Assembly (NCBI GenBank): GCA_965178125.1
Contig: OZ237741.1
Span: 62,001 to 126,000 of the forward strand
Length of the DNA: 64,000 nt
Reading direction: 5' to 3'
DNA from: Bilabrum cf. latius
Taxonomy: Eukaryota
Below, piece by piece: positions 56,988 through 57,800 of this stretch. The notes beneath the pieces were generated by a model, which saw only the letters and a program-made list of their open reading frames with translations, was not told the DNA's origin and did not search any database. The translations under genes and the position numbers were made by a program. The stretch's first letter is position 1. Every line of letters begins with the position of its first letter.

Positions 56988-57800
56988 ATGGCTGCTTCCG
57001 CTTCTTCAGGGGATACTGCCCCTGACCACACATTCAAACTCTTAATGATTGGTGATGCTGGGGTAGGAAAGAGTAGCTTGCTGTTGAGATTTACGGACAA
57101 CTCATTCGATGGGAACCAGCCACCGACTATTGGCGTAGATTTTAAGGTGTAGCATCTTGAACTGTAGGGAAAGAACGTGAAAACGACTATTTGGGACACG
57201 GCAGGTGAGACGGCATATGTAGAGCAGGATACGGCATAGGTAGAACAGGGTGTGGGCCAGAAGGAGCGGTATCCTCGAAGTCACGAAATAACAAGTCCGG
57301 ACGTGCTTCATTTATTCTTTTTCGCAGGATAGGAGAGATTCCGGACATTAACAAGTACATACTATCGCGGCGCCCACGGGATGCTGCTTGTCTATGACAT
57401 CACTCGCCCAGAGACTTTCGAGAATCTCAGCTAGTGGATGGAAGAGGCCGAGCAGTACTGCTCTCACGGTGGCAGAGACGTTGTGAAGCTCCTGGTAGGG
57501 AACAAGCTGGACCTGGAGAGTATGCGAGCCGTCTCTCGCGACGAGGCACAGTCCTGGGCGCGAGACCGCGGCATGATGTATCTGGAGGCCAGCGCCAAGG
57601 ACAAGACGGGCGTGGAGGCGGCCTTCGAGGAGCTCGTGTGCAAGATCCTGGAGAGGCCGGAGAACCACGCGGAGGAGGGCAGGGGCGAGGGGGTTGGTGA
57701 TGGAGGGGCGGCCAGGGGTGGGTCGGGCGGTGGAGGCAAGGTGGACGTGGGTGGAGGGCGAACGGGTGGCGGAGGGGACGGCGCGGGATTCTGCTGCTGA
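56988..57800 (+). CDS. RAB18: Rab GTPase, Rab18 type
   Basis: [22 protein letters not shown][TAG][16 protein letters not shown] across intron 57205-57327, VGNKLD, EASAK, C-terminal CC; 4 TAG; TGA stop. Confidence 0.93.

Follow-up and report, generated by a model that had tools for sequence, protein, structure and literature searches.

Stop codons of nuclear genomes are rarely reassigned, and codes in which UAG and UAA carry different meanings are rarer still, known from a handful of lineages (PMC11687900; this and the other sources cited below are drawn on in excerpt). In one class both UAR codons specify Gln: many ciliates, ulvophyte green algae, Hexamita and other hexamitid diplomonads, Streblomastix, and Amoeboaphelidium (PMC11687900, PMC8271138, PMC2984419). 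In others UAG alone is reassigned: to Gln in Iotanema spirale (PMC5304391) and in Protocruzia tuzeti and two phyllopharyngean ciliate lineages (PMC11687900); to Leu in the rhizarian exLh (PMC5304391); and to Ser in Scotinosphaera (PMC8271138). (The survey of variant codes also drew on PMC6299283.) The window considered here, a stretch of 64,000 nucleotides (64 kb) from contig OZ237741.1 (assembly GCA_965178125.1, filed under Bilabrum cf. latius), encodes a Rab18-like GTPase whose catalytic switch-II Gln position is occupied by the codon TAG. The window is gene-dense, has a GC content of about 61%, and lies within a contig of at least 212 kb. It very probably represents nuclear DNA from a GC-rich microbial eukaryote with few introns, one that uses UAG as an ordinary codon for Gln and in which this Rab18-like gene is intact, spliced, and expressed, with TAG specifying the catalytic Gln. 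NCBI translation table 15 holds the UAG-only Gln assignment.

The Rab18-like gene comprises two exons on the plus strand, which together form a 229-codon coding sequence with four in-frame TAG codons (codons 55, 60, 74, and 108; Table 1). Exon 1 encodes the P-loop (GDAGVGKS), switch I (TIGVDF), and the residues WDTA. The intron has the donor GTGAGA and the acceptor TTTTTCGCAG. Splicing yields, as codons 69 to 77, W-D-T-A-G-[TAG]-E-R-F, and both the intron borders and this spliced reading are exactly those of the original prediction, which was made from the DNA letters. The reading frame ends at TGA (57798-57800), directly after ...GFCC, and TAG comes next. The protein carries a long Gly-rich tail, and its C-terminal CC is a prenylation motif. 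It matches the Pfam Ras family (E=4.6e-55), and its best match among solved structures is human Rab18 (1x3s; E=3.9e-52, 180.8 bits), followed by Rab1A (166.0 bits). This margin is about 15 bits, and named database matches are labelled Rab18 (Tribonema, Ectocarpus, and JGI labels). All five G motifs, including the TAG-bearing switch II, GNKLD, and EASAK, are present and align with human Rab18, so the further claim that the other G motifs and the CC tail are intact also stands.

A query with the unspliced frame matches the Rab18 chain in two abutting segments (residues 5-74 and 72-193). The 41 intervening codons are therefore an insertion relative to Rab18, as an intron predicts, and homologs lack a 41-residue insert at this site. 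The residue that follows DTAG, entered as X, aligns with the Gln of human Rab18 and Rab1A.

The splice junction is directly visible in public sequencing runs. The runs compared with the stretch were X1, X5, X6, and X7; four runs from one sample contain the whole stretch, and three from two other studies contain about 40-60% of the sampled words. One contig each in X5, X6, and X7 (all three runs guessed to be RNA, from two studies) skips the 123 nt, with GT..AG ends. (The junction was reported at 57200/57324 with five ambiguous letters; a shift by four gives 57204/57328.) The contigs match the window letter for letter; all four TAG codons are therefore kept in the spliced form, with no sign of editing. 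The RNA-type contigs hold the spliced form only, and the DNA-type run X1, with a contig of 212 kb, holds the unspliced form. The transcript-type contigs, together with a frame test of all ten AG dinucleotides in 57250-57400, rule out a different acceptor that would leave out the TAG: only the AG at 57326-57327 preserves the GTPase frame as far as the C-terminal CC. The next AG, within the TAG itself, would shift the frame and reach TGA 27 codons past W69.

Which amino acid does TAG encode? Homology queries carried X at every TAG, so the query imposed no bias on the residue. Columns were drawn from all 120 matches listed for Rab18; from 108 of the 120 matches listed for ornithine aminotransferase (OAT), those of 380-560 residues (the 12 dropped are long insect entries and one fragment of 304 residues); and from 136 of 150 representatives for topoisomerase VI-B (TopoVI-B), those of no more than 1,100 residues. 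Four TAG codons in these three unrelated enzymes fall on near-invariant Gln columns: Rab18 TAG74, OAT TAG168 and TAG182, and TopoVI-B TAG207. Alignment to Rab18 homologs, a check proposed together with the original prediction, confirms that TAG74 occupies the catalytic position (equivalent to Ras Q61): all 118 non-gap residues in its column are Gln.

A codon-to-column log-odds score was calculated over 1,112 alignment columns of the three genes, of which TAG accounts for nine. For TAG, Gln is the only residue with a positive score (+23.6 bits); the scores of the other 19 all fall below zero, including those of Ser (-18.9), Ala (-20.4), Asn (-21.1), Lys (-21.4), Glu (-28.0), Leu (-30.8), and Tyr (-33.0). 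As a control, the same score recovers the standard meaning of 51 out of 51 ordinary codons that have at least five columns. The alignments and scores support the interpretation that TAG is read as Gln in Rab18 switch II, and the proposed preference for Gln over Leu, Tyr, and Glu is borne out; pyrrolysine is a residue that sequence alone does not discriminate, and nothing supports it. The proposal that this codon is the best single-site evidence for Gln holds in part: the site is cleanly diagnostic, yet three others, those in OAT and TopoVI-B, are just as clean.

A diverged relative carries the same codon at the same place. The metagenome contig L001 (1,973 nt, 53% GC) encodes a Rab18 identical to that of the window at 185 of 226 aligned residues (82%). 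Its intron (415-523) lies at the same phase-1 site and has GT..AG ends, and its catalytic codon is likewise TAG. The remaining TAG codons of the window gene correspond in L001 to CAG (TAG108), GAA (TAG55), and TCT (TAG60). In both DNAs the convergent neighbor of Rab18 is NDUFS4 (Pfam E values of 3.5e-17 for the window and 1.5e-17 for L001). The two NDUFS4 proteins share 162 of 180 residues, 58 of the identical residues being specified by different codons, and both in-frame TAG codons of the L001 gene are CAG in the window. From these comparisons, the TAG habit is common to at least two diverged species, and TAG swaps with CAG.

Several further features of the locus may be recorded. The Rab18-NDUFS4 pair spans 56988-60134 in the window and 183-1973 in L001; the spacer is about 1.8 kb in the window, where it contains a 408-codon frame (58271-59497), and about 0.44 kb in L001. 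The window intron is in frame and free of TGA and TAA, and its retention would add 41 residues to switch II rather than truncate the protein. This in-frame length looks accidental, because the corresponding intron of L001 has a length of 109 nt, which is not divisible by three. The RNA-type contigs end at 57682-57706, short of the stop codon, from which no inference is taken. Identical sequence occurs in X1-X7 under three organism labels from three studies; the organism may live alongside others or be filed under them. Upstream, the Rab18-like gene stands head to head with a minus-strand TPR-repeat gene, the two start codons being 233 nt apart, and the interval 56755-56988 is probably a shared bidirectional promoter region.

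The pattern extends across the window, where TAG is the only "stop" that occurs inside frames. The longest open frame is 1,046 codons under the standard code and 2,722 codons when TAG is read through. A Pfam scan of 37 long frames found 16 with a family above the curated cut-off: TopoVI-B, SGT1, CK2-beta, OAT, an ion channel, DUF92, a WD40/EF-hand giant, Rae1/Bub3-like, ALG9, COQ10-like, dynamitin, ankyrin, TPR, Rab18, ARPC2, and RuvBL1. The 16 Pfam-supported segments of 15 genes (10,347 codons) contain 59 in-frame TAG, 301 CAG, and 73 CAA codons; the frames were counted from stop to stop, including some non-coding 5' sequence, and a few of the TAGs may fall in 5' leaders. TAG makes up about 14% of the apparent Gln codons (59/433), is about as common as CAA, and occurs in 14 of the 15 supported genes, the exception being RuvBL1. 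Within the ankyrin-repeat gene, two of six near-identical tandem units carry TAG at a position that is CAG in the other four. TAG stands at conserved Gln columns in four genes, and it interchanges with CAG both between paralogous repeats and between two related species. Present in the mature message, it occupies sites where Gln is required and acts as a CAG synonym.

As for gene ends, TGA closes 21 of the 23 long frames and TAA the other two. All nine homology-anchored gene ends (Rab18, RuvBL1, OAT, SGT1, ARPC2, Rae1-like, DUF92, dynamitin, and NDUFS4) are TGA, and none of the nine uses TAG.

Table 1. Features of the 64-kb window, and residues found in homologs opposite in-frame TAG codons (positions are those of the window).
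Feature	Positions	Strand	Details
ARPC2	3422-4894	-	
TopoVI-B	4944-7619	+	In the same 64-kb stretch as dynamitin and ARPC2
TopoVI-B TAG207 (GVR-x-TRGKFGLG)	5562-5564	+	Q 87/88 non-gap, 136 homologs
TopoVI-B TAG579			Variable: S 38, T 13, N 13 (136 homologs)
TopoVI-B TAG871			Unaligned (136 homologs)
RuvBL1	11766-13028	+	No in-frame TAG
OAT TAG182	18007-18009	-	Q 108/108
OAT TAG168 (AVN-x-GHCHP)	18049-18051	-	Q 108/108
OAT TAG113			Column variable (108 homologs)
OAT TAG105			Column mostly gaps (108 homologs)
TAA-ended frame	19513-21990	+	End TAA ATT TGT TGA
WD40-repeat frame with C-terminal EF-hands; TAA-ended	32250-40418	+	2,722 codons uninterrupted, 17 in-frame TAGs; end TAA TCG TGA
Dynamitin (dynactin p50)	47720-49006	+	
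Ankyrin-repeat gene	52743-55136	+	Six near-identical tandem units of 309 nt (103 residues), differing at few sites
Ankyrin TAG, unit 2	53634-53636	+	CAG at the same position in the other four units
Ankyrin TAG, unit 4	54252-54254	+	CAG at the same position in the other four units
Rab18-like exon 1	56988-57204	+	ATG at 56988 to first base of Gly73; end ...TGG GAC ACG GCA G
Rab18 TAG55	57150-57152	+	K 89/93 non-gap
Rab18 TAG60	57165-57167	+	Variable: A 33, G 22, S 16, N 14, Q 7
Rab18-like intron	57205-57327	+	Phase-1 spliceosomal, 123 nt, GT..AG
Rab18-like exon 2	57328-57800	+	Opens GA TAG GAG AGA TTC; closes TTC TGC TGC TGA
Rab18 TAG74	57330-57332	+	Q 118/120, gaps 2; catalytic switch-II Gln position
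Rab18 TAG108 (NLS-x-W)	57432-57434	+	Q 65/120, M 17, T 9, A 9; Gln in Rab1A
NDUFS4	59595-60134	-	
NDUFS4 CAG codon	59835-59837	-	TAG in L001
NDUFS4 CAG codon	59763-59765	-	TAG in L001

(A GC3 filter for small exons was also tried, and did not discriminate.)

Apart from the few leader TAGs that may enter the counts, several observations weigh against reading UAG as an ordinary Gln codon, or against parts of that reading. The RNA label of X5-X7 is only a software guess, and X7 was flagged "probably DNA"; RNA is nevertheless the simple reading of these contigs, because the skip is clean and bounded by GT..AG. Some TAG codons do not fall on Gln columns: Rab18 TAG55 (a Lys column) and TAG60, OAT TAG113, and TopoVI-B TAG579. 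TAGs of ARPC2 and of the Rae1-like WD40 protein fall on variable positions, opposite E, R/N, D, and H of solved structures, and are uninformative. Such columns are normal for a Gln codon, since CAG columns are themselves Gln-majority in only 9 of 31 cases (TAG: 5 of 9); these sites add no support. ARAGORN and Rfam detected no tRNA or other RNA gene in the 64-kb window, and thus no tRNA-Gln(CUA) there, and the gene for the release factor eRF1 is not within the window. As for UAA, the statement that it is a stop rests on few gene ends in a 64-kb sample, and both TAA-ended frames have an in-frame TGA two to three codons downstream. (At these two ends the arrangement may reflect either back-up stops or TAAs read as sense late in the frame.)

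This last point bears on the most serious competitor, which we consider unlikely: that UAG and UAA both encode Gln (the NCBI table 6 type), with UGA as sole stop and UAA rare through high GC. This arrangement is by far the commonest variant in the excerpted sources (PMC11687900, PMC5304391). It fits the preponderance of TGA among frame ends, and the nearby TGAs would let each terminal TAA be a late sense codon. If TAA stood to TAG as CAA stands to CAG (73:301, with 59 TAG), about 14 in-frame TAAs would be expected in the 10,347 supported codons; none is found, a zero that is partly by construction because TAA and TGA were used to set the frame limits. Even so, no TAA was seen in the window to break a Pfam domain or a homolog alignment; the TAAs just upstream of frames sit in leaders or opposite the strand of other genes. 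Moreover, Rab18 of L001 ends ...GFCCF-TAA, and reading past this TAA would place the prenylation cysteines internally, 14 residues from the C-terminus. On these sequence grounds, a code in which UAG is Gln, UGA the main stop, and UAA a minor stop is favoured over one in which both UAR codons are Gln. The claim that TAG encodes Gln would still hold under the latter.

Appreciably less probable is an ambiguous UAG, serving as a stop in some contexts and elsewhere read as Gln by near-cognate tRNA-Gln(CUG) or through a context code of the Condylostoma or karyorelict type. Ambiguous codes do exist (PMC4967479, 10.1101/2022.04.12.488043), and the window holds no dedicated tRNA. However, the 17 TAGs of the 2,722-codon frame and the four of Rab18 would require near-complete decoding at each site, the anchored gene ends are uniformly TGA, and TAG supplies about 14% of the apparent Gln codons, much the same share as CAA.

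It is very improbable that TAG specifies a residue other than Gln, be it Leu, Ser, Glu, Tyr, Lys, or pyrrolysine. The Lys column at Rab18 TAG55 could be cited for such a residue, as could the Glu and Ser that L001 has at two of the window's TAG sites. Against it stand the four near-invariant Gln columns in three unrelated enzymes, the log-odds score with its single positive value, and the fact that, wherever a conserved site has TAG in one sequence and an ordinary sense codon in another, that codon is CAG. (Leu at the catalytic position would make a GTPase-dead Rab, as known from Ras Q61 and Rab Q-to-L mutants.)

Finally, the notion that the TAGs go untranslated, through a pseudogene, an assembly error, or RNA editing back to CAG, can practically be dismissed: nothing was found in its favour, the locus is expressed and correctly spliced in contigs that equal the DNA at all four TAGs, the same TAG recurs in an independent DNA-type run and in diverged L001, all GTPase motifs are intact, and no other "stop" lies inside the frames.

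How might UAG be captured as a Gln codon while UAA is spared? The mechanism predicted for Iotanema in the excerpted text of PMC5304391 suggests a candidate scheme. In it, a tRNA-Gln(CUA), whose anticodon differs from that of tRNA-Gln(CUG) at one base, would decode UAG but could not pair with UAA. Glutaminyl-tRNA synthetase would accept the CUA tRNA, and an eRF1 with weakened recognition of UAG would leave UGA as the main terminator and probably UAA as a minor one (PMC5304391). The window encodes neither the tRNA nor the synthetase nor eRF1. In Iotanema, the eRF1 change is T32G (PMC5304391).

Some clues to the lineage come from the proteins. Named matches listed lean to stramenopiles and other SAR (stramenopile, alveolate, and rhizarian) or haptophyte taxa: stramenopile algae, oomycetes, and a foraminiferan for Rab18; Coccomyxa, Phaeocystis, and Cantina for OAT; Aureococcus, Tribonema, chrysophytes, Rhodelphis, and Prymnesium for RuvBL1. 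The ten closest relatives of TopoVI-B are all environmental sequences. A quick RuvBL1 tree (121 rows) places the window protein, together with a metagenome protein 97-98% identical to it, on a long branch (0.65 substitutions per site) outside a 53-row clade (support 98) that contains ochrophytes. The gene set of TopoVI-B, dynamitin, and ARPC2 may help in placing the lineage. Green algae and opisthokonts such as aphelids are presumably disfavoured, since a single genome here combines dynamitin with a bona fide TopoVI-B.

Databases already hold pieces of this genome or its kin. Fragments 98% identical to the OAT (304 residues, P0013) and to the Rab18 (105 residues, P0123) are on record, as is a piece of the L001 Rab18 (137 residues, P0122). 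These lengths are as expected if standard-code gene calling cuts at TAG. Such calls cut genes at each TAG, and the right code is therefore required wherever this organism or its relatives are annotated.

The literature covered, which stops short of subscription journals and bioRxiv supplements, contains no description of UAG as Gln in a GC-rich alga, a stramenopile, or another fitting protist. Tentatively, and with somewhat less than even confidence, the window may represent an independently arisen, undescribed code in which UAG is Gln and UAA a stop. Its bearers would be a GC-rich clade of environmental protists comprising at least two species without close named relatives, with UGA as main terminator and with the Rab18 TAG kept since the two species split. 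A further case, backed by genomic DNA with introns, by transcript contigs, and by a related second species, would be an independent data point in a small set. It is relevant to two questions: how eRF1 recognition is lost for UAG yet kept for UAA, and whether a high GC content promotes the change. The Rab18 TAG site, lying in a tryptic peptide, is a ready target for mass spectrometry.

How, then, does the window compare with known systems? Against human Rab18 (1x3s), the P-loop, switch I, DTAGQ, NKxD, and SAK motifs all align; the window gene differs in that its catalytic Gln and three other residues are TAG-encoded, and in its long Gly-rich tail ending in CC. The rhizarian exLh and Scotinosphaera share with the window a sense UAG and, on the reading favoured here, a UAA kept as stop, according to the excerpts of PMC5304391 and PMC8271138, but their UAG specifies Leu and Ser, respectively, and these residues score -30.8 and -18.9 bits here.

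The UAR=Gln codes likewise have UAG as Gln and UGA as a working stop. They differ in their sense UAA, for which the window offers no example (with the caveat of construction given above) and in place of which L001 ends a gene with TAA. Their green algal and opisthokont representatives fit neither the gene content of the window (dynamitin and TopoVI-B, by the usual distributions of these genes) nor the single-gene tree.

The UAG-only Gln codes come closest. Protocruzia tuzeti and the phyllopharyngeans, as excerpted from McGowan et al. 2024 (PMC11687900), resemble the window in the codon change itself and, on the reading favoured here, in having UAG and UAA decoupled. Unlike these ciliates, the window is gene-dense and 61% GC, on a contig of at least 212 kb, and no ciliate was seen among the named matches listed for three proteins. 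Iotanema spirale, a member of the Fornicata, shares more: UAG is Gln, UAA is not seen as a sense codon in the excerpted account, and the predicted mechanism is the same, combining a tRNA-Gln with anticodon CUA and an altered eRF1 (PMC5304391). In Iotanema, however, UAA is the primary stop (PMC5304391), whereas UGA ends 21 of 23 frames in the window. The Iotanema code was deduced from a transcriptome, according to the same excerpts; the window provides genomic DNA with introns, from a GC-rich organism that is aerobic, as indicated by NDUFS4 of complex I. The likeness is one of code only, and no kinship with Iotanema is claimed. UAG-only Gln is thus an already known kind of code, of which the window may represent an independent origin.
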